Virus record (IMG/VR): IMGVR_UViG_3300025066_000007
Length of the DNA stretch: 64,000 bases
Reading direction: 5' to 3' (one strand)
From: a virus
Lineage: Duplodnaviria; Caudoviricetes
Shown here: one piece after another, positions 16,068 through 39,163 of the stretch
Numbering within the stretch: the first letter of the stretch is position 1
Layout: each line of letters opens with the position of its first letter
Translations under genes and position numbers: made by a program
The notes under the pieces: model-generated
The model's input: only the letters and a program-made list of their open reading frames with translations
What the model was told of the DNA's origin: nothing
Database searches by the model: none

Positions 16068-16444
16068 ATTATTTCTCGTTCTGAAATCTCATCGATAGTT
16101 CGCTCTATCTTGTAGGCTAGCTTGATATCGTTTTTGTTTATAGCTTCTTGCGCCAATAAGCGTAGCTCTTCCAAAACCTCTTCAGTTACATCATCGTCTT
16201 CTTCTTCAGCCTCAGGATCATCTGCGAGATTTGCAGCTGCCTCATCAACCTTTGCCAGGGAGTCTGCAGCACCTTTTGCCGCCTCGTTTATAGCTTTAAG
16301 GCTTTGCTCCGTTTGCTCTTCTGCGATTTTTCTATTTAAAATTTCAGCACGCTTTACTGTATCAATAACTCGTGTTTCTAGCTCTTTAAATACTTCGCTA
16401 TCATTAAAATTTGCGAGGTCTTCCTTGCTCCAAAGGTTTTTCAT
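16058..16444 (-). CDS. Acidic helical putative internal head protein
   Basis: ATG at 16444 after GGAG; C-terminal LRLLAQEAINKNDIKLAYKI tag-like segment. Confidence 0.6.
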   Translation of the reverse strand: MKNLWSKEDLANFNDSEVFKELETRVIDTVKRAEILNRKIAEEQTEQSLKAINEAAKGAADSLAKVDEAAANLADDPEAEEEDDDVTEEVLEELRLLAQEAINKNDIKLAYKIERTIDEISEREIICK

Positions 16445-16480
16445 ATCTTGCTCCAAGAGAATATCAATAAAAATTAAATA

Positions 16481-16488
16481 ATTAGTAG
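16481..16488 (-). promoter_or_regulatory. CTACTAAT putative late-promoter motif
   Basis: Exact motif between 16496..17188 and the next gene. Confidence 0.55.
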
Positions 16489-16495
16489 TTTAATG

Positions 16496-17188
16496 CTAAA
16501 GTAACATGAACTCTAATGTGCCAATGGAGGAGGACGGCGGCCCCGTACAAATTGCAACGCCAGGATGGCTTTCGGTAGGCTGAGAGGAGGTAAGCTTCCC
16601 GTCTAGCCCAATATAAAGAGTTGTGTTTAGCGGGTAGGCTTGAGTTGTGTCAAATTGATCAGTAGCATATATTCCACGTTGATAATGGATCGTTATTCGG
16701 CCACTTCCAACTGTAGTATCATCACCGGGCTTTCCGGCTATTCTGTAAATATAGTTTACTATGATTCTAAAGCTGTCATTCGTTCCGTCTTCTGTTGAGT
16801 CATAGTTTGGCTCAGTTCCAGCGGGAATGGTAACGATTCCATTTACAGAATTCAAAACAACAGAAGTAGTTGCAGTAAAGCTATTGTCTATAATATTGGG
16901 ATACTCAAGAACTCCAGTTACATCAACTGTGGATACTCGTTTTCCATTTGCATCAATAGTCGATGCTTGAGCGTCTACCAATATAACTTCGTCTACCTGT
17001 GCGCTAGTAAATGCGGATGTTCTAACATCATCTATGATTCCTAATGGAGCTGTTCCATCACTTACACTGGCAACTATATCATTTCCTATCAGTCCAAGTT
17101 GAGCAAACATTCCTGGCTCAAACTCTGCGGTTGGATCAACAGAAAGACTCATAGGAAGAGCGTTACCACTATGAATAACTTTTAGCAA
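16496..17188 (-). CDS. Second capsid decoration/cement-like protein
   Basis: GSGRITIHYQRGIYATDQFD...LYIGLDGKLTS; shares a motif with 13254..13889. Confidence 0.6.
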   Translation of the reverse strand: MLKVIHSGNALPMSLSVDPTAEFEPGMFAQLGLIGNDIVASVSDGTAPLGIIDDVRTSAFTSAQVDEVILVDAQASTIDANGKRVSTVDVTGVLEYPNIIDNSFTATTSVVLNSVNGIVTIPAGTEPNYDSTEDGTNDSFRIIVNYIYRIAGKPGDDTTVGSGRITIHYQRGIYATDQFDTTQAYPLNTTLYIGLDGKLTSSQPTESHPGVAICTGPPSSSIGTLEFMLL

Positions 17189-17202
17189 TTTATTTCTCCA
17201 TT

Positions 17203-17235
17203 AAAAAAGGGAGGAGATAACTCTCCTCCCTTTTT
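17203..17235 (-). terminator. Intrinsic terminator abutting the RBS of 16496..17188
   Basis: GGGAGGAGA-GTTA-TCTCCTCCC-TTTTTT followed directly by AATGGAG. Confidence 0.8.
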
Positions 17236-17243
17236 ATTTTACT

Positions 17244-17251
17244 ATTAATAG
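17244..17251 (-). promoter_or_regulatory. CTATTAAT putative late-promoter motif (within palindrome CTATTAATAG)
   Basis: Exact motif 10 nt after the stop of 17261..17773. Confidence 0.45.
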
Positions 17252-17260
17252 GAAATTTCT

Positions 17261-17773
17261 TTAAGCAATTTTACTCATAGTAGAAAGAACCATGTCCGCA
17301 GCAAACTGATCCCCAGAATCGCTTAACTCTTTTGCCATTTTGCTCAAAGAGTCAGTTATCTCGGTCTTTTTCGCTGCTTCTTTTTTGAAGTCTCCAATTA
17401 TGCTCTTTGCAGTAGCCTCTACTACATCCGCAGCAAAAGACTCTCCCTTATTACTTAGATCTTTAGAAATCTTCTTGAGACCATCGATAATATGTTTTGC
17501 TCTTGCAGTCAGAACTAAGCCTTCACTTGCGTAAGAGTCTAGTCCTGAAACATCAATTAAATCGGAAGCATAATGCTCCCTCTCTTCTTCGGAGTCCAAA
17601 ATTAGGTCTTCTAGCTCAGAATCTGAAACAACATTTTCAGCTTCCGCAGGAGCCTCCTCCAAGGAAGCCGTCTTAACAACGGCTTCCTTGGCTGGAGTGC
17701 GCGGTGCGGCGCCCTTCAATAGCCCTGCAAATTCCTGAGCAATATTATCTCCATTCTTTTTTAGGCTATACAT
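17261..17773 (-). CDS. Putative internal head protein carrying two copies of the shared helical tag
   Basis: LKKISKDLSNKGESFAADVV and LSKMAKELSDSGDQFAADMV; VVKTAS, FKKEAA and MSKIA motifs. Confidence 0.65.
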   Translation of the reverse strand: MYSLKKNGDNIAQEFAGLLKGAAPRTPAKEAVVKTASLEEAPAEAENVVSDSELEDLILDSEEEREHYASDLIDVSGLDSYASEGLVLTARAKHIIDGLKKISKDLSNKGESFAADVVEATAKSIIGDFKKEAAKKTEITDSLSKMAKELSDSGDQFAADMVLSTMSKIA

Positions 17774-17782
17774 GACTTCTCC

Positions 17783-20700
17783 TTACTCGTCCCAGAGTGA
17801 AGATAGGGAATCGGCAGACATAGGCCCCGGCACGCTTGCAGTGTTATCTTCAGTTTTAACGCCAATATTTAGGCCGCCGAGATCAGATGCAATCTTAACT
17901 GTCCCAACTGAGCGTGCGCTTGCAATGCTCCTCTTAAACGCCTCAAAGGCATTGTTGTCGAAAGACATGATCTCATCTACCTGTCGGTCCAAAGAAGCCT
18001 TAGATGACGGCAACAGACCCTTGGTTTGCATTTCTAGACCAACATCATACGCTCTACGAAGCTTGATTCGATATTCTTCCCTAGCTTCATTTGCACGCTT
18101 CTCTTCCATCTTACTCGCAAGCGCAGCCTTTAGTGCTCCACTCTTATCGGAAGCCTCAACTTCTAGATCATCCTCAGCTTCGTTAACAACCGCATCAGCA
18201 GCTTCGTTAACAACCGCATCGTCAGCTTCGTTAACAACCGCATCAGCAGCTTCGTTAACAACCGCATCGTCAGCGCAGGATTCTGCTCCCATTTCGTCAG
18301 AGTCTTCGTCCATTGCTTTCTTATTTAGCTTGTCGGCTGCGAATCTACTTTCCGCTTGCTTTAGGATGGCTTCCCGGCGATCCCTTCTTAGCTGCATAGC
18401 CGCAGTAACCAGCTCTTCTGTGCCATCATCCGCGAGGTCTTCCATTGGTTCTTCCGCTGCTGGATCATCCATAAGGTCATCAGCAAGATTAACAGTTGAA
18501 TCCACAGCCATATCCTCTGTCGGAGCGAAATCTTCTGCCATATCCATTGCAAGTCGAACAATTGCCTTCGCCTCACCGGTCGCCCTATCAGCGTCCTTAA
18601 TCGCATCACTTGCAAGCTTTCTAAACTCAATTTTCTGAGCAGAGGATAGCTTGCTAATATTATCAAAGGTTTCTGCCACCATAGAGAGCTCATCTGCAGA
18701 TCCATCAAGACGCTCGAAGGCCGTCTTCAGATTGGTAAGCATCTTAGATGATAGTGCTGTCATTTCTGCATCAGCACCCTCTGCAGCAGCGCCTTCTTCT
18801 CCGGTAAAGACATTGACGTCTACATCTGCAGTCCTTCCATCCTCAAGCTCGCTAACAAGATCTCTGACCTCATCGATTAGCTGCTCCATTTCAGCCAGCC
18901 TATTGTCGACTGCAGTTCCGGGCTCTTCCGGCTCTTCGTCCATCGGCATTTCAGCGTCTAGCTCCATCGGCATTTCGTCTTCCATCGGCATTTCTGCTTC
19001 CATCGGCATTTCTGCTTCCATTGGAGGCATAGCAGCCTCCTCCGGTGCAGCAGGCAACTCCTGAGCAGTCTTAAGCAAGCTGGTAACATGAGTTAATCCA
19101 GCAATGCGAATTTGAGAACAAACCTCGCGACCGTAATCACGGCTCTTTAGCCACTCCCAGTTATCCTCTAGGCTGGGCCCAAAGATCTCTTGGCCAGTAG
19201 CCGCGATCACCCTCTTGTCTCCAGCAAAAACCTCTAGGAGACTCGCCTTCTTGTCTACGGCTCCATTGAGAGCTCTTTTCACAGAGAATCTTGTGCTTAG
19301 CCCGGGGCCATTGTAAGCTGCTCGGCTCATCTTCTCTTTGACCTCCTTGTCGCCAGGGAACATGCCGGAATCTCCACCCATGCTTCCTGTCTGTAGCATG
19401 TGCTTGTCATCGCCATAAGTTTGCGGCTCACTCTTGTAGGTGTTGGGCTCAGCGCCTTCGGATCCGCCTTGCATGTAAGCCAAACGCTTTAGCTTACGCT
19501 CTTGGAGTTGAGCTCGACTCAGCTTCTCCTTTGTCTCCTTGTCGCCAGGGAACATGCCGGAATCTCCGCCCATGCTTCCTGTCTGTAGCATTTGCTTATC
19601 TTTGCTCTGCGCATCGGTAGGCTCACTCTTAAATGTGTTAGGCTCCGCACCCTCTGAGCCGCCCTGCATGTAAGCAATTCTACGGCGTAGCTCAGCTCTC
19701 TTCCTCAATCTTGACTCGTTCATAATATCCTCCACTATTGAATTAATTGAAAAGTCGTTAACAAAATCGCTGCTATCACCATTATTGGCAGTTTTAACGT
19801 GTTGATCTTGCTTACTGCTAATTACCGAAACAGCGGGCTCTCCACTGGCCGGAAAACTTAAAATATCATCCTCATCACCAGCGAAGTCAGGCTGGTCCCC
19901 TGTATCTCCGCCGCCAAGAAGTCCTATTCTAGATGTTGCAGCGCTTTGCTCTGCAACATCGCCTGGACCTCTTCCGTCTGAGTTTTCATAAGATGAAAAC
20001 TCCTCTCTGTTTGTGCCAGAGAGATCTGGTCGGAATTTCTCTTCCAGCTCCCCCATAAGCATCTTGATGACTCTCTTGACATCATCATTGACATTTGGAT
20101 CTCCCAAAAGACTAGCCGCATCGGGCATTGTCTTTAGGGTTTCTGCTATGTTTCTTGCCTCTTCTGATTCGTCAGTAAATGAAGTCTTTAAAAGACCATT
20201 ATTTTCTAGAAAACTTCTTACAATACGGTCTCTATCATCTACGGAGCAGCTATTATCTCCGCAGGCAGTTTTCATTATGCCATCCAAATGTTCCGCTTGC
20301 TTAAGGCTAAGCCTTCCTAACATTTCAGAAACATTGTCTACACCATAATTTGTAAATTCTTTTTTGTATTCCTGCAAGGAGGCTATACACTTTAGAAGGA
20401 CTGCTCCAGGCTCTGCAGGCTGAACCACTAGGCTGTACTCAATTGGCTTGAGCCCAACATTGACCTCTCCATGAGCAGCCCTGCTTGAGATGCACTTGCA
20501 GTATTCATTTTGATTTGTTGCTTTGTTTTGGCAATCTGAGCAGATAGAGGTTTCTACTGCTGTACCCATTGATCCGTATCGAACCATTCCGGTTTCAACC
20601 TTCCTGGCAAGGTCTGGATAGTTGACCTTATCAAGGGCGCAGAGTCCAACGACCTGCTTAAACTTCTCATCGTAATGGGTATCTAGAATGATTCCTCGTA

Positions 20701-21097
20701 TTCCGTCTACAGAGCTTGATTCGTGGTCTCTACAAAGCGGGAGGCCTATCCATTTTGATGTAGCCTTTTTTAGCTCAGATTCGGGGAATATATCGGAATT
20801 ATTATTTTTGTGAGCAGGAACATTGCCATGCCACTTCCAGTTTTGATCGAAAAAGCCCCAGGCGTCTTCCTTTCCTACTTTCTTTATCTTTCCCTCTCCG
20901 TCTATAAGGGCTGACTCTGCGGCCTTTAAAAAAATGATCGAAAAATATAGAAAGTCGTCAGACTTGGGAGCAATATTACGAAGGCTTTTTGCCAACTTTG
21001 TAAATCGTTTTACGATAACAGGATTTGCACATACGGCCTCGTGCGTATGTGTCTCTATATCGTAATTATTTGGAGAAAAGCATATCTTCTTTATCAT
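17783..21097 (-). CDS. Prohead (maturation) protease - scaffold fusion
   Basis: N-terminal HK97-gp4/assemblin-like domain: HKNNNSDIFPESEL, LCRDH (His, 20723..20725), RYGSMG (Ser, 20570..20572). Followed by ~850 aa of acidic low-complexity/coiled-coil scaffold. Located between portal and MCP. Confidence 0.85.
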   Translation of the reverse strand: MIKKICFSPNNYDIETHTHEAVCANPVIVKRFTKLAKSLRNIAPKSDDFLYFSIIFLKAAESALIDGEGKIKKVGKEDAWGFFDQNWKWHGNVPAHKNNNSDIFPESELKKATSKWIGLPLCRDHESSSVDGIRGIILDTHYDEKFKQVVGLCALDKVNYPDLARKVETGMVRYGSMGTAVETSICSDCQNKATNQNEYCKCISSRAAHGEVNVGLKPIEYSLVVQPAEPGAVLLKCIASLQEYKKEFTNYGVDNVSEMLGRLSLKQAEHLDGIMKTACGDNSCSVDDRDRIVRSFLENNGLLKTSFTDESEEARNIAETLKTMPDAASLLGDPNVNDDVKRVIKMLMGELEEKFRPDLSGTNREEFSSYENSDGRGPGDVAEQSAATSRIGLLGGGDTGDQPDFAGDEDDILSFPASGEPAVSVISSKQDQHVKTANNGDSSDFVNDFSINSIVEDIMNESRLRKRAELRRRIAYMQGGSEGAEPNTFKSEPTDAQSKDKQMLQTGSMGGDSGMFPGDKETKEKLSRAQLQERKLKRLAYMQGGSEGAEPNTYKSEPQTYGDDKHMLQTGSMGGDSGMFPGDKEVKEKMSRAAYNGPGLSTRFSVKRALNGAVDKKASLLEVFAGDKRVIAATGQEIFGPSLEDNWEWLKSRDYGREVCSQIRIAGLTHVTSLLKTAQELPAAPEEAAMPPMEAEMPMEAEMPMEDEMPMELDAEMPMDEEPEEPGTAVDNRLAEMEQLIDEVRDLVSELEDGRTADVDVNVFTGEEGAAAEGADAEMTALSSKMLTNLKTAFERLDGSADELSMVAETFDNISKLSSAQKIEFRKLASDAIKDADRATGEAKAIVRLAMDMAEDFAPTEDMAVDSTVNLADDLMDDPAAEEPMEDLADDGTEELVTAAMQLRRDRREAILKQAESRFAADKLNKKAMDEDSDEMGAESCADDAVVNEAADAVVNEADDAVVNEAADAVVNEAEDDLEVEASDKSGALKAALASKMEEKRANEAREEYRIKLRRAYDVGLEMQTKGLLPSSKASLDRQVDEIMSFDNNAFEAFKRSIASARSVGTVKIASDLGGLNIGVKTEDNTASVPGPMSADSLSSLWDE
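18177..18272 (-). repeat. Four 24-bp in-frame repeats (DAVVNEA[AD])
   Basis: gcttcgttaacaaccgcatc(agca/gtca) x4, alternating variants. Confidence 0.9.
18940..19030 (-). repeat. EMPME[AD] 18-bp in-frame repeats in the scaffold
   Basis: MPPMEAEMPMEAEMPMEDEMPMELDAEMPMDEE. Confidence 0.8.
19321..19675 (-). repeat. 195-bp (65-aa) tandem duplication within the scaffold
   Basis: AYMQGGSEGAEPNT[FY]KSEP...MLQTGSMGGDSGMFPGDKE[TV]KEK[LM]SRA starts at 19675 and 19480. Confidence 0.9.
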
Positions 21098-21183
21098 AAA
21101 AAACCTTATAAGAATTAATCAAGTATTTATACAAATATTAGTTTTATGACTTTTTGTGTAATATTTTTTTGAATAACATATTT

Positions 21184-21369
21184 TTATTCGGCTTCATCAT
21201 CATCTAGGTAGGTATTTAGAATCTCAATTCTTCTATCATCCACATCTTTGCTGTCACTTTTCTTATATAAATTGATAGTATCGAAGTCTTCATTGAGCTC
21301 ACTACTATATCCATCCTTAGATGTTTTCACTATGATTTTCTTTGTTTTATCACTAAATTTTATAAACAT
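21184..21369 (-). CDS. Small hypothetical protein
   Basis: 61-aa ORF starting 9 nt after the stop of 21378..23654; IIVKTS motif. Confidence 0.5.
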   Translation of the reverse strand: MFIKFSDKTKKIIVKTSKDGYSSELNEDFDTINLYKKSDSKDVDDRRIEILNTYLDDDEAE

Positions 21370-21377
21370 ATTTGCGC

Positions 21378-23654: not shown

Positions 23655-23693
23655 TATAAATCCTATATATTTTACTGTTTAAAATAGCAGATT

Positions 23694-24020
23694 CTATAAT
23701 CTGGAAGATAATTCACTTAAAACGATATTTATGAAATAAGGATCCTTACTATTCAACACATTCTTAATAAGACCCAAGCTGACGCCGATAGAAGCTCCGC
23801 CTGGACTCTTCTTGTTGGAAAGTTCCATTCTATTAAATTCAGAAATTTTATTTTTAATATTGTGAAAAGACTTTCCTCTAGACTCTGGGGCCATGCCGCT
23901 AATCATTATCTTAATGATGTTATGAAGTTGCTCTGCAACATATACCGCATTCTGTTCTAGCATTTGCGCTTCCTTAATAAGCTCGGGGTCGCTCAACTGT
24001 CTTGCGCTATACTCAAACAT
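23694..24020 (-). CDS. Hypothetical head-module protein
   Basis: 108-aa coupled ORF; LIKEAQ motif. Confidence 0.65.
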   Translation of the reverse strand: MFEYSARQLSDPELIKEAQMLEQNAVYVAEQLHNIIKIMISGMAPESRGKSFHNIKNKISEFNRMELSNKKSPGGASIGVSLGLIKNVLNSKDPYFINIVLSELSSRL

Positions 24021-24579
24021 GACCTACCACCATCTGTGCGACTACATGATATGCGGCATTATGAGCTTCTGATTCGGACCCTCCATCTTCCACAGACTCT
24101 ATTAACAAAGAGTTATATTCTTTTACAATCGACTTTATAAGAGATTGTTTTCCCATAATGTCAGAATTATTGATTTTTATAAGCAGATCTTTCAGAAGAA
24201 CTTGGTAGTCTAAATTTTTTTGTTGTGCTATTTTCTGAATTAAAAAATCTGCAAAGTTAGAATACCTGTATTCCTCCTGCTTGTCCATTCCATCAGAAAG
24301 ATCTATTAGAAGAGCTAGGAGCTTATCATACTCTAAGTCATGTGTTTTTCGTTTTTTCTTTGGAAATTCTTCACGATCTTCGGCCTCTGAATGAGTTGCA
24401 GGCATTACTGACTCTCCTGGCATGACCAAGCCTCTTCCTACTCCATTTCCAGCATCTCCAGAGAGCCCTTCTTCGCCAGACGCTTGCCCTGGCAAATTTA
24501 AATTGAATTCGGTATTCAATCTTTCCAATCGCTTATTTCTATAAGATTTTTTATCCATTTTATTTTTTAACTTTGCCAA
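24013..24579 (-). CDS. Hypothetical head-module protein with tag-like segment
   Basis: LIDLSDGMDKQEEYRYSNFADFLIQKIAQ. Confidence 0.65.
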   Translation of the reverse strand: MAKLKNKMDKKSYRNKRLERLNTEFNLNLPGQASGEEGLSGDAGNGVGRGLVMPGESVMPATHSEAEDREEFPKKKRKTHDLEYDKLLALLIDLSDGMDKQEEYRYSNFADFLIQKIAQQKNLDYQVLLKDLLIKINNSDIMGKQSLIKSIVKEYNSLLIESVEDGGSESEAHNAAYHVVAQMVVGHV

Positions 24580-25963: not shown

Positions 25964-25965
25964 CT

Positions 25966-28188
25966 TTACATAACTCCCTCTGGGGGCATTCCCATATCGG
26001 GCGCTTCTCCACCCATTCCCTCCATGCCTTCCATTCCTCCTGCATCTTCTACACCGGGAAGACCGCCCTCTGCTCCGCCAGCAGTCTCTGTTCCAGGCGG
26101 CTCAGTGATTGACTTAGAGGGATCAAGACTCTGCAGCTCTGCAAGCTTCATGCCTCCAAGGACTTGCTGCTCTTTTGCAAAGATTTGATTATCGATCATT
26201 TCTTCTCGAATTCTTCTACGCTCCTCTTCATAGCTAAGGCCAAGACTTCTGTGCAGAGTCTGCAGTGAAACTTGCTGGTTTCCAACAAACTGTCCAACAG
26301 AAGTTATAAAGTCGGCCATATCGTAAAGATTCATGTGGTTAAAGTCAATTGACGGAACAAGAAGTCTCTTCTCCCCATCTTTGTATTCAAAGAAGTCTTG
26401 TATCTCACAGATTGGGGCGAAGACCTTTCTCTCAAGCCACTTCTTAATCATATTTCTGAAAATATCATATCTCTGACGCAAAACTTCTAGACCGACAGAC
26501 GATGACGCGTATGTGTTTCCATGTATAGCAACCTTGCCATTATGTCTGGTTACAAATACGTGATTAGGAACTTCAACGCAGAATACTCTTTCTTCGTTAA
26601 CCCAATTAATAGTTACATCACTAGGACGAACCATTGCTGTAACAAATTTGGAATCAGGATCAGTAGGTGTTAGGTTATCAATTGTTGTCATAAAGAGAAC
26701 ATTGTTTTCATGATTAATATCGAACTTCTCGTCAGAATTAATCTCGTCAATATCAAAGACCTCCAGAGCACGACTCTTCTGATAAGTTGCTCCCCCATCT
26801 TTAGAGAGATACATTTCGTGAAAATCAGTTACTTCAACATCAACATTCTGATTCTTAAATGCATACATCATTCCTGTAAACTTAAAGTCTTTATAAAATG
26901 TTGGCCTATGAAACTCCAAAGCCTGTGTTTCGGGATTTACTGTAGCGATTTTATCGTCTTCTTTTAGATCATCAAAGAACTTCCACCCACTAGACTCCGT
27001 TAAGATCTCATTATCAGAAACCTTAAGGCAGGAGCTTTCCTGATCCATTAATGCCTTTGGAGTCATGAGGCCTGCGTAAATGTTTGTAACGATATGCTCA
27101 ATATCAGTTCCGATATCTAGGGTCGAGCCAGAGAAGCCAGAGCGTTCGATCTTAACGCCATTGTGGGTTACAATCTTGAAGTCTTTATCATATTGAGCTT
27201 CTTCCAAAAGATTCTTAAAGGCCTCAATGTCAGATTGGGTTGGACGATAGTCGCCTTCTCCTCCAAGGGTAACCAGAGTCAGGGGGTTTATCATTCCGTC
27301 TGCTTGTGCAAACTTTGATTCCCTAAGCCGATCATAGAGCATCAGGTCTTTATATATAGAGACGATAACGGATGTGCCTCGGATATCATACGGAGAACTC
27401 AATAGCTTTAGGTGAGAAACGTTAAATTCATCAAGAGGAATGTTTTGACCACGACGAACATAGTTCAAGATATGCTTGGGTATGAATTTTCGCATAGACA
27501 AGTCGGCAGGAGAGGTTGAGTTTACCAGTCGCTGAAGAGTTGCGTCAGGTCTCAAGGAGACTATTGTATTGTTTCCAATAACTGTCTTCTTAACATGGAC
27601 GTAATCAGGGTTTAAGATTGTGATTCGCTTCCAGATTCCCGCCTGCTCATCTAGCTCTGCATAGGGAAATGCTTCGCCCAATTTCCAGAACTCCAATGCT
27701 GCTCCGTAAACAATTGAGTATAAATCAATCTTTTCTGCCATCTCCATGAAGAACTGTTGAACTTTTTTGTTTTTACATGTGATATTAATCTTGCTTATAG
27801 GATATGATGCGTGAAGATTTATTGCGTTTCTAACGAGAGGATGCGTGTCGTAAAAAACGCGATTCCAGGCGTTCATCGTCACCCGATCTCTTGGGAGATT
27901 CAGGTTTGCAAGCTGGAATAGAGGAGAATATATCTCTGGGGACATTCTATCGGAAGTGGACGAAACTGTGGGCCCCGGCATAGGAGAGGATATTGATCCA
28001 CTCTTTATTAGATTTAAACTCTTCTTTCTAAAATTAGAGCTGTGAGCTATAGCTCCAATCGGAGACTGATTCTCATCTCTGTCCATCTGCTTATTTGCTG
28101 CGTCTGAGATCTGAGCACGACGCACTTCAGAAATAGACTCTGCAGTCTTTTTCGTCAGAGGAGTAGGGGGCTTACCTGTTCTTCTCAT
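25966..28188 (-). CDS. Portal protein (contains a mini-intein)
   Basis: Immediately follows TerL; YDTHPLVRNAINLH...ILNPDYV...YGTSVI-like segment (PYDIRGTSVIVSIYKDLMLYDRLRE); acidic Gly/Met/Pro tail. Confidence 0.8.
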   Translation of the reverse strand: MRRTGKPPTPLTKKTAESISEVRRAQISDAANKQMDRDENQSPIGAIAHSSNFRKKSLNLIKSGSISSPMPGPTVSSTSDRMSPEIYSPLFQLANLNLPRDRVTMNAWNRVFYDTHPLVRNAINLHASYPISKINITCKNKKVQQFFMEMAEKIDLYSIVYGAALEFWKLGEAFPYAELDEQAGIWKRITILNPDYVHVKKTVIGNNTIVSLRPDATLQRLVNSTSPADLSMRKFIPKHILNYVRRGQNIPLDEFNVSHLKLLSSPYDIRGTSVIVSIYKDLMLYDRLRESKFAQADGMINPLTLVTLGGEGDYRPTQSDIEAFKNLLEEAQYDKDFKIVTHNGVKIERSGFSGSTLDIGTDIEHIVTNIYAGLMTPKALMDQESSCLKVSDNEILTESSGWKFFDDLKEDDKIATVNPETQALEFHRPTFYKDFKFTGMMYAFKNQNVDVEVTDFHEMYLSKDGGATYQKSRALEVFDIDEINSDEKFDINHENNVLFMTTIDNLTPTDPDSKFVTAMVRPSDVTINWVNEERVFCVEVPNHVFVTRHNGKVAIHGNTYASSSVGLEVLRQRYDIFRNMIKKWLERKVFAPICEIQDFFEYKDGEKRLLVPSIDFNHMNLYDMADFITSVGQFVGNQQVSLQTLHRSLGLSYEEERRRIREEMIDNQIFAKEQQVLGGMKLAELQSLDPSKSITEPPGTETAGGAEGGLPGVEDAGGMEGMEGMGGEAPDMGMPPEGVM
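26515..27030 (-). mobile_element. Mini-intein (172 aa, no endonuclease) in portal
   Basis: Starts CLKVSDNEILT after DQESS; block B VTDFH; ends VFCVEVPNHVFVTRHNGKVAIHGN; +1 residue Thr. Confidence 0.85.
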
Positions 28189-28190
28189 CT

Positions 28191-31040
28191 TTAAATTCTC
28201 CTCTTAATATTCGCGATTACAGGCCTTGGATATTCGAGTCTTTTATCTAGCCCAGGCCTCATAGAGAACCCCTTGGTTAGGTCGAATTTATACGCCATAT
28301 AGGCGTATATTAGCGCCATAAATCCATCATTTGGCGAGTTTCCCTTGACGTAAGTCTTTATGGGCTGACCTCCGGATGTCCTTATTTTGGTCTCCATAGA
28401 TGTGCAGTGATCAATGAGCCACTCCATGTGCTCATAGCTCTTCCATGGAAATCTAACCTTTCCCTTTCTAAACAGCTCAATTAATTCGTCAATTAATAAA
28501 TCTTTATTATAAGAAATAATTAGCTCATCCTCTCTATATTTTACTGGTTTGGCCAAGCTTCCACTTCCTTGAGCTCCAAGAAACCTATCTCCGTATACTA
28601 ATTGAAGATCCGAAACAACGTCTTGTCCAAAGAACCAGTCTGATACGCCTCTCGTTACACCAAACCTTCGATACATCTCTTTTATAGTATCTTTTTTAAA
28701 ATCAAATGTATTCTTCTTTAACTTATGGGCGTGTTCTATAGATAAGATCCCATCTGGACTTGCAGACAGAACGACTACACAAGAGAAGGACTGCCCTCCT
28801 CTTGAATTAGGATCGTCATCTTTTCCACCCCAGTCAGAACCAAGATAAACAGTTTTTTCCTTTGAGCTAATAGATTTTGCAAAATATCTATCCGGATCCC
28901 TGCATAAGTTATAAACTTCTGCCTTAGTAAGGGGGGAGCCTGCGCCAGAGTAAAACTCTCCAATAACTTCATTTTTCCAGATTCGCTCTGTTTGGGCAGG
29001 ATTATTTTCCGGCATTAACTTTTCTATATTTTCTTTTGTAAAATATGGAATATAAAGCTGATTGATGTGAAATCCAACGAAGTCGGATTCCTCAAAAGGC
29101 CTTGTTGACACCCACTTTCCAAGTTCTATAGCTTCTATTTTCTTCTGTTTTGTTCCGCAAAGAGGGCATTGAACTATGTTTTCATATAACCAAATTGACT
29201 GCCACCGATTATCATCTGGAAGATAAAAGGGATAAGTCTTCTTGCAATTAATGCACCCAAGATGGTAATAGCGCTGATCTGAAGTTCCCCATATTGTTGC
29301 GAAGTGACTGTTCTTGCTCTTAGGGGTTCCAAAATAAACCTGCACCCCCTGACCAACAGGGCCGTATTTTGCGGCAGTTAAAATCTTTGTTGCATTGCCG
29401 ATTGCATGCGGCAACATCTCTTGGCAATTATGAACGATAGGACCTCCGGTTCCGCTTGAGCCTTTTCTTGACGACAAAATAAAATTGTGATTATCTTCTA
29501 CCTCAATATCGTAAACGACCTCTTTCTTCTCAACGGGAGTTACATTATTGACAATTGTCCATGAGTATTCCTTAAAATCTTGGTTCCAGCTATAAGTTTC
29601 TCCGGCAAATGGCTTTAGCAGCTTATGTGACATAGATGGATGCACATATGGAGAGATTAATTCGGATAAGCTTTTGAATCCGTCCTTGTTAATGAGGACG
29701 TAAAAATAATGTTTATTTCGCTGCTTTGAAAAGTATTTTGAATAGTGACACTTTATTCCCATAGAATTAAGCTTCTTAACGATTCTTTTTTGAGAATCCT
29801 CATCAAATGAAGAGGTGTGCAACGTTCCGGCTGCAGAGCTCTTCCACCTTGCGTTTACAGATCCGTCATCCATAAACCAAATAGCCAGACCTCTCTCATC
29901 TAGCTCGTCTAGCACTTCTTGTGGACAAGTAGACTTTGTCTTTGGGAGATCAAGGTTCATACAAAACATTTTTGAGGAAAATCTTATCGCAGGCTTTTGG
30001 CTAAATCCATTTTTTTCAATTCTAGTTACATTCGCATTAATTATTTTTGACTTCCATTTGCAATACTCTTCCTGGGCCTCTCCGTGATTTACCATAAGTC
30101 TATGGCCTTTGTCACAAGTCCGATCAAGATGGCCATCTCCAAGAAAAGATCCAAGAACTAGCTGCCTCTGATCATCATTTAGAGCTCTGGAGCGCTGAGC
30201 TCCTTCTTTGCGTGATTTGAGCAGATCTCCGGACAAAAGTTCTTCTGCAGGAACCCATCCTCGACTCGTAAGGAATCTGTGGTTTCCAGTGCATTTTATT
30301 CGCCACTTTCCAGCTGTAATTTTAACTAAGCCCTTGGAGCCTCTGTTCCAAGCTTTTTTTATCTTCTTATATTCGAACTTTTCTATAGATTCGTTGAATG
30401 TTCTGGCCATCGGAAGCTCTTCTCCGGCCTCAAATCGCCTAAATAGCTCTCCTATCTTAACCTTTCCATCAGATGTCTCTATATGCTGATCGTAAGGAAA
30501 GCACTCATCGAAAATGCCAACATCAACGGTCATGCCACGAATTCTGTCTCCGTCTGTTCCAAGGCTGTCTATCCAGAGGGTTCCGGTATTAAACTGCTTC
30601 ATCGTAAGGTTGTCGACGGAGTTTGGAGTATTTAGCTTGTTTTTGGTTATGAAGTCATCTTTTGCGGTTCGAATAAGATTCTCTAACTTATCCTGAGAAA
30701 ACTTCTTCACCTGCCCTAAAGCTGGAAATAGGTGAATCACTCGAATATTCGGATCTGTGAACAGACCACTGTTGGTAAAGAACAGGTCAAGTGCTCCGGC
30801 CATCATAGTGGCGCCAACCTGTCGACCTTTCTTTATTACAACCGGCTTCCCATCGGGCCTTGTTGCTTGAAGTGCGATATAACGATAGATATCGGACATG
30901 AATTTCCAGCCGTTATCTAAAACGTTAAATTCAGCTCCATCTAAAGTTAGGTTATTCTTAGTAAAGTGCGCAGGATCGAAATCGAGAAAATTTGATTTTA
31001 ACTGTTCAAATAAATCTTTTTCGCTCTTTTTTGGTGCCAT
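28191..31040 (-). CDS. terL: Terminase large subunit (lambda GpA-like features; contains a LAGLIDADG intein)
   Basis: IKKGRQVGATM (Walker A region), VGIFDE|CQ Walker B, FGTP, Zn motif CINC...CPLC, GFHINQLY, nuclease LGSDWGG. Confidence 0.9.
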   Translation of the reverse strand: MAPKKSEKDLFEQLKSNFLDFDPAHFTKNNLTLDGAEFNVLDNGWKFMSDIYRYIALQATRPDGKPVVIKKGRQVGATMMAGALDLFFTNSGLFTDPNIRVIHLFPALGQVKKFSQDKLENLIRTAKDDFITKNKLNTPNSVDNLTMKQFNTGTLWIDSLGTDGDRIRGMTVDVGIFDECFPYDQHIETSDGKVKIGELFRRFEAGEELPMARTFNESIEKFEYKKIKKAWNRGSKGLVKITAGKWRIKCTGNHRFLTSRGWVPAEELLSGDLLKSRKEGAQRSRALNDDQRQLVLGSFLGDGHLDRTCDKGHRLMVNHGEAQEEYCKWKSKIINANVTRIEKNGFSQKPAIRFSSKMFCMNLDLPKTKSTCPQEVLDELDERGLAIWFMDDGSVNARWKSSAAGTLHTSSFDEDSQKRIVKKLNSMGIKCHYSKYFSKQRNKHYFYVLINKDGFKSLSELISPYVHPSMSHKLLKPFAGETYSWNQDFKEYSWTIVNNVTPVEKKEVVYDIEVEDNHNFILSSRKGSSGTGGPIVHNCQEMLPHAIGNATKILTAAKYGPVGQGVQVYFGTPKSKNSHFATIWGTSDQRYYHLGCINCKKTYPFYLPDDNRWQSIWLYENIVQCPLCGTKQKKIEAIELGKWVSTRPFEESDFVGFHINQLYIPYFTKENIEKLMPENNPAQTERIWKNEVIGEFYSGAGSPLTKAEVYNLCRDPDRYFAKSISSKEKTVYLGSDWGGKDDDPNSRGGQSFSCVVVLSASPDGILSIEHAHKLKKNTFDFKKDTIKEMYRRFGVTRGVSDWFFGQDVVSDLQLVYGDRFLGAQGSGSLAKPVKYREDELIISYNKDLLIDELIELFRKGKVRFPWKSYEHMEWLIDHCTSMETKIRTSGGQPIKTYVKGNSPNDGFMALIYAYMAYKFDLTKGFSMRPGLDKRLEYPRPVIANIKRRI
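29427..30503 (-). mobile_element. Intein with LAGLIDADG homing endonuclease (359 aa) in TerL Walker B
   Basis: CFPYDQ start after DE; CTGNH block B; LVLGSFLGDG and LAIWFMDDG; VYDIEVEDNHNF...IVHN|C end. Confidence 0.9.
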
Positions 31041-31637: not shown

Positions 31638-31652
31638 TGTATATCCGATTGA

Positions 31653-32663
31653 TTATGCGAAATAATTCTTCATAAAATCTACGTTTTTTCCGTCATCTCC
31701 TTCCTGAAAAAAAGACCCTCTATCCTTGAAAATATGGAATCCACTGTCGGCAAGAATCTGCATTATAGAAAGCTCTTCACGGTCAGTTAGGTCATACTTT
31801 TTTGACAGAGTTTCATATACCTCTTCCATTGGATGGCCTGCAGAAACGTGAGCGTTTATCATCATTCCTGAAATAGCCCTTTCGAAAGGGGTTATAGATA
31901 TAACTATGTTCGAAGGAGTTCCTGCTTCCTTTACTAGATCTCCATAGGCAACACTTTCGCCAGATGCAGCAGCCCAAGCCGGAGGTATCTTTACAGAGGC
32001 TTTCTTCGAATGCTCTTCTTTGACCTTTTTATTCAATTTATTCAGGTGGTCTTTTAGCACAAGGGTGTCTCGCATTATGCTGACACGAATAGCCTCAAGA
32101 GCCTGTATGTCTAAGACATTATCGTGATCATCCCTGATGGCCCTAGAGATCTCATGGTTTTTTCTGTCCAAGAAGCTTAAAGCTCGTTCACAGCCGACCG
32201 TAGTCCGGCCATCATGCTGAGGGATCCTAGAAGGATACTGGTCATTTATATAGGCCATAAACTTTTCTAAGTCACCATCATTCACATAGTCAGTCTCTTT
32301 TTCCTCAGCCTCTTCTTCAAGCTCTTCCGCTCTTACATCCGCGCCAGGAAGGAGGTCCCCAAGAGTTGTATCTCCATGCTCCTCTAGAAGTTCGGTAACC
32401 TCTTCGTCCATCTTTGCCAGCTCTTCTGATAGCTCTCCGAAGCTTTCCTCTCCCTCCACCATTGGCTCTAAGACTTCTTTGAGAGTTTTGTCAGAGAGCT
32501 CTGGGTCCAAATCTTCGTCCATACCAATGATGGCTCCGACTAGACCTTCGGGACTTCCCTGTAGCTCTTCGGCAAAAAATACATCATCAGATTCGTCATA
32601 AACATATGACTCTTCTGGCTGTGTTGCTTCTTTGTAAATTATCTGCTCAAATTCTTTAGACAT
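31653..32663 (-). CDS. Acidic putative internal head protein
   Basis: 336 aa; IYKEAT, SKKAS and LVKEAG motifs; AGGAG RBS. Confidence 0.65.
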   Translation of the reverse strand: MSKEFEQIIYKEATQPEESYVYDESDDVFFAEELQGSPEGLVGAIIGMDEDLDPELSDKTLKEVLEPMVEGEESFGELSEELAKMDEEVTELLEEHGDTTLGDLLPGADVRAEELEEEAEEKETDYVNDGDLEKFMAYINDQYPSRIPQHDGRTTVGCERALSFLDRKNHEISRAIRDDHDNVLDIQALEAIRVSIMRDTLVLKDHLNKLNKKVKEEHSKKASVKIPPAWAAASGESVAYGDLVKEAGTPSNIVISITPFERAISGMMINAHVSAGHPMEEVYETLSKKYDLTDREELSIMQILADSGFHIFKDRGSFFQEGDDGKNVDFMKNYFA

Positions 32664-32671
32664 ATTATCTC

Positions 32672-33112
32672 CTATCCTACAAGGCTATATATACCGTAGT
32701 ATACGCTTCTGCTCTCATTATTATCAGAATACTGATCCAAGGGGTATCCATATTGTGCTTCCGGCATATTGCCAATCATCATGCGCGGATATAGGGGGCT
32801 TCCAGTTAGTCCAACGTTTCCAGCAGGGAGTCTGCTTTGATCTTCGTCATACTTACAATCTACAGAGCCTTTATCTTCAAAGACTCTATCCGCAAATGGG
32901 CACTTTATTTTTTCTTCAGCCAAAAACATTAGATCCATATTTTTTTCAGCAAGCTCTTTGCGCTCTTCTTCATGCTCAGCCAAATCCAATGGAGTCATAT
33001 CTCTTGCGATCGCCCTATTCTTTTCTCCATCTTTTCTAACCGCACCAATGCTAATGCACCCCTCTGCAACAGGGAGGCCGAATGGACATTGATGAAGCTT
33101 TCCTCTAATCAC
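32672..33112 (-). CDS. Cys-containing hypothetical protein (GTG start)
   Basis: QCPFGLP...CISIG...KCPFAD...VDCKY. Confidence 0.6.
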   Translation of the reverse strand: MIRGKLHQCPFGLPVAEGCISIGAVRKDGEKNRAIARDMTPLDLAEHEEERKELAEKNMDLMFLAEEKIKCPFADRVFEDKGSVDCKYDEDQSRLPAGNVGLTGSPLYPRMMIGNMPEAQYGYPLDQYSDNNESRSVYYGIYSLVG

Positions 33113-33153
33113 TTTTATTCCTATTGTTTTATATAATATTAGTAATTCTAAGA

Positions 33154-33930
33154 CTAGATATTATCCAGATAGTATTTAATAAGCCTTCTTTTGATGAGCT
33201 CATCCTTAAATCGTCCAACTAAAGGAACAGAGGTAAGGAGGTCCATATCCATAAGGTGCTTTAGCGTAACCTCGGGAGAGGCCTTAAGCGCTCTGGCGAT
33301 TACCTTTGAGATAGACGTCGGCTTAACAAAGAGTGGCCCATCCGTTTTGAAATTATTTCTGTTCTCCTTAATAAAGGATACTAGCTCGGGATCTAAATCG
33401 AATCCAAAGCGTGCAGCAAAACTTATAGCTCTAAATGCACGCTTTGGATCATCGCTTATTGTAATCTCTGGAGGAACACAGGTTTTTATTATTTTTTTGT
33501 CTAGGTCTTCTAAGGCGCGACCAGTAGGATCTGTAATCTCTTTTGTTTCAATGTCCATATGCAGAGTGTTCATTGTAAAATCTCGGCTATAGACTTCGTG
33601 ATAAAATTCGTCTTTAATCCCAAGTTCTTTATCAATATACTCAATTGCTCCTTCGGAAAGAAAGTTGCTTGAAAAATCTAATGTGTATTTATCAAAATAT
33701 ACGGCTACATGGCCATCTGGAAATAGTTTGAATAACTCATCAAAAGTGTAGGCGATTGTAATCGCAAGACGAGCAACATCAGGATGATTCGTTGTAAGGT
33801 CTATATCCTCAAACTCCCTTGCCATGCCAAGGGTAATATCCCTGGGAACCCCGCCTACCACATAAGGCTTAGAAATGAAGTTTTCTTTGCAGATATCTAA
33901 AATCTGCCCATATAGTCCCTCTGTCTTCAT
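33154..33930 (-). CDS. cca: Class II tRNA nucleotidyltransferase (CCA-adding/poly(A) polymerase family), short form
   Basis: YVVGGVPRD...EDIDLTT (motif A), SRDFTMN (motif B), ISDDPKRAFRAISFAARFGF (motif D). Confidence 0.85.
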   Translation of the reverse strand: MKTEGLYGQILDICKENFISKPYVVGGVPRDITLGMAREFEDIDLTTNHPDVARLAITIAYTFDELFKLFPDGHVAVYFDKYTLDFSSNFLSEGAIEYIDKELGIKDEFYHEVYSRDFTMNTLHMDIETKEITDPTGRALEDLDKKIIKTCVPPEITISDDPKRAFRAISFAARFGFDLDPELVSFIKENRNNFKTDGPLFVKPTSISKVIARALKASPEVTLKHLMDMDLLTSVPLVGRFKDELIKRRLIKYYLDNI

Positions 33931-33934
33931 GTGC

Positions 33935-35446
33935 TTACTCTAAAGGTTGCTCGACCGGCTGCTCAGCGCTTAAGTCGTCTGGAGATAACTGCTCCTCAGA
34001 TTCTTCGGCTGTCTCAGGGGAACCGGGCACTCCCTCACTTGTGCTTACGAGCACTCTTGCATTTGCGAGCTGACCCATCATTTTGGTTACTCTAGTTAGA
34101 GAGTATGAGAATGCGTCAATTAATTTACTCTGAGATTCTGCAAGCTCCGGAAATAGGGATGCGATCCCGATTTTGTCTAGCATAATATCAAACTCAGCCA
34201 ATTGCCTGATGACTCTTCTATCTGCAAGCATTCCCGCGACCTCATCTAGCTTTGCTGAGGCAATTTCGAGACTAACATCTCCGGCCAATTCTTCATACTC
34301 TCCTGGCCTTGCCCCAGGCATTGGCATGATCTCCTTGAGATCCTTCGGCTCTACTTCATCTGCAGATGGAACCTTAAAGCCTGACTTGCTATCTGCGGCC
34401 TCTTCCGGCTCATCTGAGGTTGGGATTGCCAGCTCTGCTTCCGGTGGCTGTGCTGCTGGCACAGACTCTTGCGTTGGTTCTACCTGAGGCGCATGAGAGA
34501 TTGGCTCATCTGAAGGTACTTCTTGTGCAATTTTCTTCAGAATGCCCGCAGCCTCATTGGCCCCAGCCCTTTCAAAAGTTGATGCCGTCTTATATGTGAC
34601 ATCGGATAAGGTCCTGGCAAGTTTTACTTTTTTCGCCAAAATACTAAGACTGTTGAGAGCTTCCGACAAGTCCCTATACTCTTCATGATCGACATATCGA
34701 TCGGACCTAATTAGTTTGTCCACTCTTCTGATCGCTCCATAGAGCTGTTGTTTCCAAGTGGAAAATGCATTTTTTTCCTCTGAGTTTCTTGCAGGCCGCT
34801 GAGAAACCTCCTGAAAAGTTCCTCCATCAAAGCTATTCCCAGGCATATTGTTCGTAGCGCTATAGGCACCGCCGCTTTGTCCTAGTCCAGATTGGTAAAC
34901 CGCTTTTTTCTTCATGTCTAGCTCCTCTTCAAGGCTATACTTCAAGTGTTCTCCTGCGCTATAATAGTCGAACCACTTAAGAAATCCGACTTTTTCCTTT
35001 TCATCTAAGGAATTGCTGTAGTATTCCAGGGCGTTCTCTTTTGACATCTCTCCTGTTTCTACTGAGTTATATATTTTATATACAAGTTCTAGCCACGCGT
35101 TAACATTATATTCTTCTGTTATTGCCTCTGGAGAGAGCCCGTAATTTGGATAGGCAAGTTTTGTTATTCCCTTCGAAGTCATCCTTGCCTTTACAATCAT
35201 ATAGTAAGCATCATTTTTGCTTTTAATATCAGATTCTAATATCTTTCTTATATTACTGTCGGTAAGCGCAGCGCCTATCTCTGAAGCCGCACTCTTTACT
35301 GTAAGATATTGGGATAATTTTTCATCAGAGCTAATCGACAACGAAGAAAGATAACGAGCACGCTTGGTTAGCCCCACAAATTCGTCGCTACCAACTCCGG
35401 AAGAAAGCTTTACTAGCTTTTCATAAAAATACTTATTGATCTTCAT
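33935..35446 (-). CDS. Putative internal head protein
   Basis: 503 aa; LTKRA, ITKLA, MKKKA and LKKIAQ motifs; tag-like TYKTASTFERAGANEAAGIL. Confidence 0.6.
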   Translation of the reverse strand: MKINKYFYEKLVKLSSGVGSDEFVGLTKRARYLSSLSISSDEKLSQYLTVKSAASEIGAALTDSNIRKILESDIKSKNDAYYMIVKARMTSKGITKLAYPNYGLSPEAITEEYNVNAWLELVYKIYNSVETGEMSKENALEYYSNSLDEKEKVGFLKWFDYYSAGEHLKYSLEEELDMKKKAVYQSGLGQSGGAYSATNNMPGNSFDGGTFQEVSQRPARNSEEKNAFSTWKQQLYGAIRRVDKLIRSDRYVDHEEYRDLSEALNSLSILAKKVKLARTLSDVTYKTASTFERAGANEAAGILKKIAQEVPSDEPISHAPQVEPTQESVPAAQPPEAELAIPTSDEPEEAADSKSGFKVPSADEVEPKDLKEIMPMPGARPGEYEELAGDVSLEIASAKLDEVAGMLADRRVIRQLAEFDIMLDKIGIASLFPELAESQSKLIDAFSYSLTRVTKMMGQLANARVLVSTSEGVPGSPETAEESEEQLSPDDLSAEQPVEQPLE

Positions 35447-35687
35447 CGTCCTTTTCTAGTCGCTCCAAAAGAACTCCAAATTGACTAAGCCACTCTTTCT
35501 TGTCTAGTAGCCTAACTTTATTCATTTCATTTTTCAAGTATTCAATAAAGATTCTAAAGTGATCTGAATCTATGACCTGATCTTCTTTGTATAGCTTCGT
35601 GTTATCTCGGATCCACTTCTCAAAAGATATCAGGCTATTGATATCTTCTAGGCGAAAAGTTTTACGAAGCTTGCCATCAGTAAACAT
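35433..35687 (-). CDS. Small hypothetical protein
   Basis: 84-aa coupled ORF. Confidence 0.55.
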   Translation of the reverse strand: MFTDGKLRKTFRLEDINSLISFEKWIRDNTKLYKEDQVIDSDHFRIFIEYLKNEMNKVRLLDKKEWLSQFGVLLERLEKDDEDQ

Positions 35688-36369
35688 CTATGACCTCTCC
35701 TTCTATAAGAGCCCTATTATTAGCATCTAACATATTTAATTTGTTATCTAATCTCGTTACAAATACTGTGACTAGACTTGGGTCTATCTCCTGCAGAACG
35801 CTAAGAACGGCTTCCTTCAGAACTCTTGCCTGCTCGTTAACTACATTGATATTGACATTATGATCAATTCTCTTATCAGCAACACCCTCAATATACTTTT
35901 TCCAATCTTGCATCAAAGTCTTCATTGTATTTATATATTCGATAAAAACTTTGTCATCTCTAATGGTAGTTGTTGCACCGCTTTCCAGAAGATTATAATA
36001 ATACTCTATCCTTGATCCGATCAGCTTATCCATCTCCAGAAGTCTTCGAGAAACGTCAAGCTCTGCTCCGGCTATTTCATCTATTTTTCTTTGATAGGCA
36101 GAAGATGAGTTTATAACCATCTTAGTCTCTGCCTCTAAAGCTTTTTTATCTATCTCTGTTCTTCTGTTTTTTACGTCATCAAGAAGGTTGCCTTTCAGGT
36201 TTAGGTTCTCTCCTCTAAACTTTTGAAGCGTCATATATGACACATGGAGCCTTCTTGTTCTTGGATACTTCTTTTTCAGCCAAGCCTCAACTGACTTTAC
36301 TGAGTCGCCTTCCAGTAACTTTGAGATAATATCTTCCTTATCTGGATGATTTAAAACTTTCTTACTCAT
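35677..36369 (-). CDS. Candidate terminase small subunit
   Basis: N-terminal HTH-like HPDKEDIISKLLEGDSVKSVEAWLKKKYP...VSYMTLQKF followed by oligomerisation-type helices (resembles the Mu gp27/DUF3486 layout). Confidence 0.45.
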   Translation of the reverse strand: MSKKVLNHPDKEDIISKLLEGDSVKSVEAWLKKKYPRTRRLHVSYMTLQKFRGENLNLKGNLLDDVKNRRTEIDKKALEAETKMVINSSSAYQRKIDEIAGAELDVSRRLLEMDKLIGSRIEYYYNLLESGATTTIRDDKVFIEYINTMKTLMQDWKKYIEGVADKRIDHNVNINVVNEQARVLKEAVLSVLQEIDPSLVTVFVTRLDNKLNMLDANNRALIEGEVIDVY

Positions 36370-36393
36370 ATTTCCCCTGGTAACCTCTTGAAA

Positions 36394-36431
36394 GAAAAAG
36401 GCTCTGACTTATTTTACCAAGTCAGAGCCTT
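36394..36431 (-). terminator. Intrinsic terminator
   Basis: 13-bp stem AAGGCTCTGACTT...AAGTCAGAGCCTT followed on the minus strand by a T-rich tract. Confidence 0.8.
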
Positions 36432-36493
36432 AAGCGTCTACGAGAATTAATATTGCTATAATTTTCAATACAGCACTTAGCTCCCAACCCTCT

Positions 36494-37015
36494 TTAGAAG
36501 GCTTTCTTGATAACCCAGTCTAACATGTCCGCTTCTTTTATCAGGCCTTTTTCGTCCAATTGGCTTGCAAGATTCATAAGATCAGTTTGCAGTCCAACAC
36601 TGCCGCCTGCGATTTCTCTTCCATCTTCAGTTTTGAATCCTTCGTTATAATCGTAGATCTTATTTGTATATGGATCCTGCATTATACCGTCACCAATGCG
36701 CCTAGCCTGAACCCCCACTCTATCAGGAGAGTATCTGGTTGACAGAGAGGGACTTACCTCTCGTACTTCCGCCTTTGAGTCTTCATGATCTGAGCCGAGA
36801 TCATAAAGAGCCTCTGTCTCTCTGGACGGAACTTCTCCGCCTCTTTGGGAGAGGTACTTTTGTCTAGTCACATAATCTTCAACATTTGATTGGAAAGATT
36901 GAAAAATACCATGCTGATCAGCTGCAGCGACTTTGTGAAGATCCTCAAGCTTAGAGAGGTTCTTCGCAGAGGTTCCGGCCATAATGTTTAGGAGTTTAGA
37001 TTTTCGATCTTTCAT
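36494..37015 (-). CDS. Putative internal head protein with C-terminal shared tag
   Basis: C-terminus LMNLASQLDEKGLIKEADMLDWVIKKAF; LHKVAA motif. Confidence 0.65.
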   Translation of the reverse strand: MKDRKSKLLNIMAGTSAKNLSKLEDLHKVAAADQHGIFQSFQSNVEDYVTRQKYLSQRGGEVPSRETEALYDLGSDHEDSKAEVREVSPSLSTRYSPDRVGVQARRIGDGIMQDPYTNKIYDYNEGFKTEDGREIAGGSVGLQTDLMNLASQLDEKGLIKEADMLDWVIKKAF

Positions 37016-39155: not shown

Positions 39156-39163
39156 ATTAGTAG
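39156..39163 (-). promoter_or_regulatory. CTACTAAT putative late-promoter motif
   Basis: Immediately after the stop of 39164..39604; second motif at the replication/head boundary. Confidence 0.55.

Follow-up and report, generated by a model that had tools for sequence, protein, structure and literature searches.

A recurrent helical-hairpin tag in proteins of the head gene module of an uncultured marine giant phage

Why do several otherwise unrelated proteins that are encoded among the head genes of a giant phage carry what looks like the same short helical hairpin? This question is raised by IMG/VR record IMGVR_UViG_3300025066_000007, whose source, an uncultured giant phage of marine origin, is related to Bacillus phage G. 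The stretch analyzed here (the window, 64,000 nucleotides, nt) is part of a 105,986-base viral contig that is estimated to be 32% complete and has 133 open reading frames (ORFs). A sequence-only reading of the window had proposed that six copies of a hairpin tag, all with one spacing of leucine, glycine, and alanine positions, occur in at least five proteins encoded around the protease, portal, and large terminase (TerL) genes. Reverse-complement translation yielded all six peptides at their positions on the minus strand, on which the genes and tags of the window are located; the plus strand gives stops. By profile comparison, four copies in three proteins, of 170 amino acids (aa; two copies), 173 aa, and 188 aa, are the firm count and constitute one module. 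A copy in a 132-aa protein is probably a divergent member, whereas the membership of a segment in a 503-aa protein, which scores at noise level, is not established. The proposal of six copies in five or more proteins therefore stands for three proteins and probably for a fourth. The module as such is real, conserved, and portable, and is predicted to be a hairpin, and the gene with two copies occupies the position of a scaffold gene, next to the protease gene.

The 170-aa protein is encoded at positions 17261-17773. Its tag copy 1 (residues 97-128; 17390-17485) is the most conserved stretch of the family, and copy 2 (residues 141-170; 17264-17353) follows 44 residues after copy 1 and forms the C-terminus. 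The 173-aa protein (36494-37015) has, as judged from conservation and an AlphaFold2 model, a C-terminal tag (residues 144-173; 36497-36586) behind a small, conserved beta domain; several of its orthologs stop before the tag and one member has two tags. Ortholog comparison revealed the tag of the 188-aa protein (24013-24579) to be internal (residues 89-120; 24220-24315), and in the window this copy has a Glu at the position where many orthologs have the turn Gly. At least 10 relatives have the 188-aa ORF joined to the downstream 108-aa ORF (together 23694-24579) as one continuous ORF. In the 108-aa protein, the N-terminal sequence ELIKEAQML corresponds to the second helix of the tag alone and was not counted. 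The copy of the 132-aa protein (ORF 16058-16456) comprises residues 96-127 (16076-16171) and lacks the Gly in the window, where it was not detected by the tag searches with hidden Markov models (HMMs), whereas orthologs with the Gly score 7.9-12.5 bits compared to a decoy maximum of 5.1; its hhalign value to the pooled tag profile is 78%. The Gly-turn helical segment of the 503-aa protein (ORF 33935-35446; residues 282-313, 34508-34603) is conserved in 43 orthologs, but gives 31% to the pooled profile and z values of 4.4-4.9. A six-frame profile search of the whole contig recovered five copies in four proteins, namely the two of the 170-aa protein, the one of the 173-aa protein, the one of the 188-aa protein (39.4 bits), and an internal copy in a 445-aa protein outside the window, which was not part of the profile training. 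From its sequence, the 445-aa protein has an HExxH motif. Two stretches of the protease polyprotein were rejected as tag candidates, since the one near residue 788 gave an hhalign value of 41%, which is control level, and the one at residues 985-1070 gave less than 1%. Residues 865-1043 of the polyprotein resemble the 132-aa protein (window 17783-18500 and 16058-16456, respectively; short BLAST, 38 bits versus a shuffled maximum of 32.9).

Comparison within the genome gives little hold on the significance of these copies. The spacing that had been described for them was found in its strict form in 3 matches among the 133 contig ORFs versus 0.04 in shuffles, and with relaxed hydrophobic positions in 7 matches versus 0.6, whereby this enrichment test is post hoc. 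In an unbiased all-against-all short BLAST within the genome, the tag pairs were at noise (28.6 bits versus 28.6-32.9 in shuffles). The significance of the tag rests on ortholog profiles. Portal- and capsid-anchored scans of IMG/VR led to about 160 syntenic loci, of marine and other metagenomic origin. An HMM trained on one family alone detects the remaining families above reversed-sequence decoys: the HMM of the 173 family finds N-terminally tagged ORFs with up to 44 bits, the 188 family with 19 bits, and the 170 family with 11 bits, compared to a decoy maximum of 4.0. Within the 170-aa protein, the HMMs of copy 1 and copy 2 find each other at 27-31 bits, with an hhalign value of 98%. Between tag families, hhalign yielded 94% for 173/188, 90% for 170b/132, 80% for 170b/173, and 46% for 173/503, whereas for 57 helix-like control segments taken from these phage families the maximum was 3.6% against the 173 profile and 48% against the 170b profile. 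In an ungapped profile scan over 6,959 sequence windows, the tags were mutual best non-self matches in exact register, with z values of 7.1-7.3 for 173/188 at a noise level of about 5. Thus, measured against background, the recurrence holds, as the cross-family HMM and hhalign matches exceed both the reversed decoys and the helical controls.

An alignment of 181 unique copies describes the module as about 30 residues forming an amphipathic helix, a Gly turn, and a second helix, with the pattern xxLxKLAxxLDxxGxxxEADxxDxxIxKI. The strongest columns are L3, A7, L10, D11, G14, A19, and D20, and beside the hydrophobic core and Gly14 the polar positions K5, D11, D20, D23, and K28 are conserved. These charged positions exceed what the core of a hairpin needs, and their conservation points to a surface for binding and not just to a fold. 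In both proteins modeled with AlphaFold2, the predicted structure is a hairpin that turns at the Gly, as the sequence-only reading had expected. In the 170-aa protein, residues 90-170 have a predicted local distance difference test (pLDDT) score above 90 and form helices at 90-108, 112-153, and 156-169, separated by an NKG and a GD turn; in the 173-aa protein, strands at 105-136 are followed by helices at 140-155 and 159-172 with an EKG turn in between. No Pfam family matches the tag in ten tag-bearing proteins (expect value, E ≤ 1), profile searches of the PDB with the tag and with the 170 family gave nothing below E 0.1, and literature searches with tag sequence strings gave nothing relevant. 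A Foldseek search of the 170-aa model against the PDB returned only weak rows of tetratricopeptide repeat (TPR) and designed helical-repeat proteins (E ≥ 0.5). By its sequence profile, the module is an apparently undescribed, widespread domain.

How widespread it is can be seen from a profile search of 1.84 billion representative proteins, which gave 2,046 protein clusters at E ≤ 0.001 and 125 at E ≤ 1e-10. Inspection covered the top 150 of the 2,046 matches. After masking of the tag, the top 149 fall into 64 unrelated groups, in which tags are N-terminal, C-terminal, or internal and often present at both ends; 19 of these matches have one copy and 113 have two, some proteins have 2-4 copies, and a tandem-pair spacing of 43-46 residues dominates. 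Almost no metagenomic tag protein has a Pfam domain and most are uncharacterized. One of 55 representative profile matches is a genuine TPR protein, which implies that the weak tail of the match list probably holds more of them. A Pfam Phage_T7_Capsid match among the same 55 representatives was discarded, as no member could be identified as its source. In terms of position, 30 of the 181 unique copies are N-terminal, 50 C-terminal, and 101 internal. Among the relatives of the phage, no fewer than 20 unrelated bodies have the tag N-terminally, C-terminally, or internally; a PilZ domain and a cell-wall hydrolase with two LysM domains are among them. The tag opens small ORFs at residues 3-32, which represent about 14 groups unrelated by masked BLAST, and some orthologs of the 704-aa family carry it at the C-terminus. 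In clusters in relatives (L163, L164, and L165), the small ORFs with an N-terminal tag have in front of it a common ribosome-binding block, GGAGAA and, after 4-6 bases, AAATG, which suggests that the leader travels together with its translation signals. Searches with tag profiles gave no match in phage G, Tunturi_5, LR745208, or Rctr197k, and a tblastn search with one tag copy against 50,697 phage records also gave no match.

The protein in which the module is most prominent is the 170-aa protein. It had been described as little more than two tags plus an acidic linker, and this is confirmed, except that an N-terminal helix has to be added: the helix is followed by an acidic stretch of about 65 residues, with residues 22-84 predicted by AlphaFold2 to be disordered, and then by the two tandem tags (isoelectric point of the protein, 4.65). 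Its gene immediately follows that of the prohead protease, with a gap of 9 nt here and an overlap in one relative, and is upstream of the capsid gene. The protein is also encoded on contigs of up to 309 kb. A tblastn search against the 50,697 phage records gave one chance-level match (E = 8), and none of its look-alikes in the ESM Atlas is named. Because it abuts the protease, is placed upstream of the capsid gene, is acidic and partly helical, partly disordered, and has the tags as its best conserved part, the 170-aa protein is likely a scaffolding or core protein.

The location of the copies in relatives ties the module to the head genes only in part. Between the genes of a 336-aa and a 198-aa protein, just upstream of TerL, there is a variable slot that is empty in the window (31638-31652) and holds 1-3 extra ORFs in relatives. 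Both flanking genes are present in 55 relatives, 35 of which have no ORF between them, and 19 of the 20 filled slots contain at least one ORF with an N-terminal tag; most of the N-terminally tagged small ORFs of the relatives sit here. Whole-record searches of five relatives (222-335 kb) revealed 5 to 17 tag copies each, 51 in total. The head module, which makes up about 9% of the DNA, contains 19 of these 51 copies, an approximately four-fold enrichment (binomial p 5e-8); without the always-present pair of the 170 family, 9 of 41 copies are in the head module (p ~0.01). The head link of the tag is thus real but partial: the head-module setting given by the sequence-only reading is borne out as an enrichment, but less than half of the copies lie there.

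A further part of the initial proposal was that the tag links accessory enzymes to head assembly. Three accessory genes near the start of the window carry such tags, namely at the C-terminus of a 435-aa protein (ORF 2358-3665; tag 2361-2453), at the N-terminus of a 262-aa protein (ORF 3662-4450; tag 4340-4435), and at the C-terminus of a 528-aa protein (ORF 4622-6208; tag 4625-4705). The accessory tags (2358-6208) share an L..L...L...G..KEA core, and a 1122-aa homologue of the 528-aa protein in a relative (L081) has an internal copy. The three genes are rare in relatives. Head-tag HMMs do not detect the accessory tags (-0.5 bits; no match at E ≤ 1), and HMMs from three seeds were found to be too narrow for linking the two kinds of tag. 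Only the 173-type profile links to a four-copy accessory profile, with an hhalign value of 79% over 20 columns compared to a control maximum of 28%. On sequence grounds, the accessory tags therefore appear to be a distinct but related subtype, and the suggested link of these enzymes to head assembly is left with the alignment to the 173-type profile in its favor and the failure of the head-tag HMMs against it. The accessory genes 2358-3665 and 3662-4450 begin with a second shared leader, M-N/K-R-F-x-K-L-x-x-L-x-K-x-A, as do four adjacent genes of the same relative (L081:3893-10528).

What could such a tag be for? We lean, at somewhat less than even confidence, towards the explanation that it is a docking label for the prohead core and that the 170-aa protein is a two-tag scaffold. 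The two tandem tags would then be the business end of the 170-aa scaffold or core protein, presented on its disordered acidic linker, and proteins with a single N-terminal, C-terminal, or internal tag would bind the same partner through the same hairpin. This partner might be the scaffold core, via helical bundling of hairpin to hairpin, or the inner face of the capsid protein. The tagged proteins would thereby become enclosed in the prohead in the way the internal proteins of T4 do via their targeting sequence. The partner, the packaging into the head, and any later cleavage are what we infer here. Peptidoglycan-acting domains are typical of ejected virion proteins such as T7 gp16, and we count the peptidoglycan-acting tagged bodies in favor of the docking label. 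It might even be, although we would put this forward only as a possibility, that the system amounts to a plug-and-play loading of cargo: any protein bearing the hairpin would co-assemble with the two-hairpin scaffold and be sealed in the capsid, and the variable tagged ORFs would be an exchangeable payload injected with the DNA.

The docking label can be compared with known systems. In T4, diverse internal proteins from variable loci share only a short capsid targeting sequence (CTS), which brings them into the prohead's scaffolding core (PMC3012670). The tag is likewise the common element of otherwise unrelated proteins, and a slot that is filled almost only by tagged ORFs mirrors this arrangement so that the parallel is close in logic. 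The T4 CTS (of IPI-III and Alt) comprises about 10 residues, is strictly N-terminal, and is cut off by the head protease, which acts at a defined site. The tag, in contrast, is predicted to be a folded hairpin of about 30 residues, is found at either end or internally, sometimes in 2-4 copies, and has no recognizable cleavage motif and no sequence similarity to the CTS. The second comparison is with P22. Two P22 reports describe a C-terminal helix-turn-helix of a small helical scaffold protein that is essential for coat binding (bioRxiv 10.1101/2022.12.13.520362) and particles that enclose cargo fused to the scaffold hairpin (PMC9962691). Similarly, the 170-aa protein is a small helical protein encoded in the gene block from portal and protease to capsid, with a C-terminal helix-turn-helix predicted by AlphaFold2, but neither the tag nor the 170 family has a sequence match to any PDB chain. 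We know of no natural reuse of the P22 hairpin on many unrelated proteins. On these defining features, the tag belongs neither to the T4 CTS nor to the P22 scaffold family. Encapsulation peptides of microcompartments and cargo-loading peptides of encapsulins are short terminal helical peptides that direct unrelated enzymes into a protein shell; they are shorter than the tag and are single helices or extended motifs, and with them there is only an analogy and no sequence relation.

Several observations weigh against the docking label for the prohead core. Of the 51 copies in the five relatives, 32 are located outside the head modules, many of them as N-terminal tags of small orphan ORFs that are densely clustered at a distance of about 100 kb, and Pfam and PHROG scans of such a cluster gave no match. 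One metagenomic tag protein adjoins a helicase. By eye, no common protease-site motif was recognizable after the N-terminal tags or before the C-terminal ones. The tag is acidic, unlike the P22 scaffold hairpin, which binds the coat protein through basic residues. Phage G as the closest cultured relative was without the tag in the profile search mentioned above, and searches of Pfam, PHROG, the PDB, and annotated phage proteins revealed no known scaffolding protein to which the 170-aa protein is related. The first of these points are at the same time the strength of the main rival explanation, according to which the tag is a general docking or oligomerization module that is not specific for the capsid. 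In the infected cell it would join many phage proteins to one another or to a single hub. The hub could then be a phage factory, a scaffold, or a host target, and the copies in the head modules would be only part of a wider network. Besides the many copies in complete or near-complete relatives outside the head modules and the neighboring helicase, the many metagenomic proteins with tags at both ends or with 2-4 copies would suit cross-linking, and fold and spacing resemble those of the TPR unit, which is a protein-binding hairpin of a generic kind: L3-L6-A7-L10-G14-A19 has the same spacing as W4-L7-G8-Y11-(G15)-A20 of the TPR, and the best Foldseek rows, though weak, are designed TPR and helical-repeat proteins. 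The tags differ from TPRs in being single or paired 44 residues apart instead of forming arrays with a period of 34, in their second-helix register, and in that no Pfam TPR model matches the ten tag-bearing proteins at E ≤ 1. We regard a general docking module as less likely than the docking label, because the head modules are enriched about four-fold, the sole family that always has two copies is in the scaffold position, and the variable slot of tagged ORFs lies among head-packaging genes.

It would also be conceivable that the module has one ancestry but two functions, with the hairpins of the 170-aa protein serving as coat-binding or self-assembly elements and the 173-type tag having another partner and purpose. 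The second helices do differ (FAADVVEAT in the 170 type and KEADxLDxxI in the 173 type), and the 170 and 173 types detect each other only modestly (7.8-11.4 bits; hhalign 80%), whereas the 173, 188, and N-terminal types detect one another strongly. Nevertheless, both types share the conserved polar positions K5, D20, and K28 and co-occur in all five relatives searched, so that such a split appears quite improbable to us. That the copies have no function in common and are just generic amphipathic hairpins, together with one internal duplication in the 170-aa protein, is hardly credible. The noise-level similarity of the pairs within the genome, a spacing that is the same in any TPR-like hairpin, and the weakness of the 503-aa copy and of the window's own 132-aa copy would agree with this, but single-family HMMs reach other families far above the decoys (up to 44 bits), the 1.84 billion proteins contain 125 clusters at E ≤ 1e-10, the polar positions are conserved, and the 57 helical controls stay at or below 3.6% in hhalign with the 173 profile.

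The surroundings of the tagged genes agree with those of a head module. In the order of transcription, and named by the length of their products in aa where no other name is given, the genes are 518, 173 (tag), 230, 84, 503, nucleotidyltransferase, 146, 336, 198, TerL, portal, 467, 188 (tag), 108, 758, 61, protease, 170 (two tags), 230, 132 (divergent tag), 704, 211, and capsid protein. The TerL gene (28191-31040) carries a LAGLIDADG intein (Pfam GpA_ATPase, Intein_splicing, LAGLIDADG_2), and the TerL proteins of relatives are without intein and have about 590 aa. The portal protein (25966-28188) matches phrog_16240 (E 2e-42), and the protease is a 1104-aa polyprotein (17783-21097) with a head maturation protease domain at residues 95-206 (phrog_18299, E 7e-11). 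The major capsid protein of 335 aa (12232-13239), which we take to have the HK97 fold that is common to encapsulin shells, matches gp27 of phage G (PDB 6wkk, E 1e-91) and phrog_2522 (E 1e-73). Its residues 1-45 (13105-13239) form an N-terminal extension (about 45 residues) that is highly conserved, has no counterpart in phage G gp27, and may be a propeptide or a scaffold-contact arm. A putative GroEL-like chaperonin gene, recognized from its N-terminal sequence only, is located about 5 kb upstream of the 173-aa tag gene (41899-43545). A megablast search of the region against phage records gave no match. The sequence CTACTAAT occurs seven times in the window (873-880, 4469-4476, 6430-6437, 8167-8174, 14349-14356, 16481-16488, and 39156-39163), in all cases on the coding minus strand, compared to 2.4 copies expected over both strands. 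Six of the seven copies are located 6-220 nt upstream of gene starts, and copies precede the 132-aa gene and two accessory tagged genes, which makes CTACTAAT a candidate phage promoter.

Giant-phage heads carry many proteins, and the way these are selected is understood in detail in T4 and in few other cases. That the tag acts in head assembly is a good and clearly testable hypothesis. If it is true, a folded and position-independent tag, present in thousands of metagenomic protein clusters, would constitute a second and different solution to the loading of heads. It would mark candidate injected proteins, such as anti-defense factors and wall-degrading enzymes, in uncultured ocean phages, and could serve as a compact tag by which proteins are loaded into HK97-fold shells. 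Should the partner be something other than the capsid, the module would still merit the description of a family as an undescribed and very widespread docking domain.

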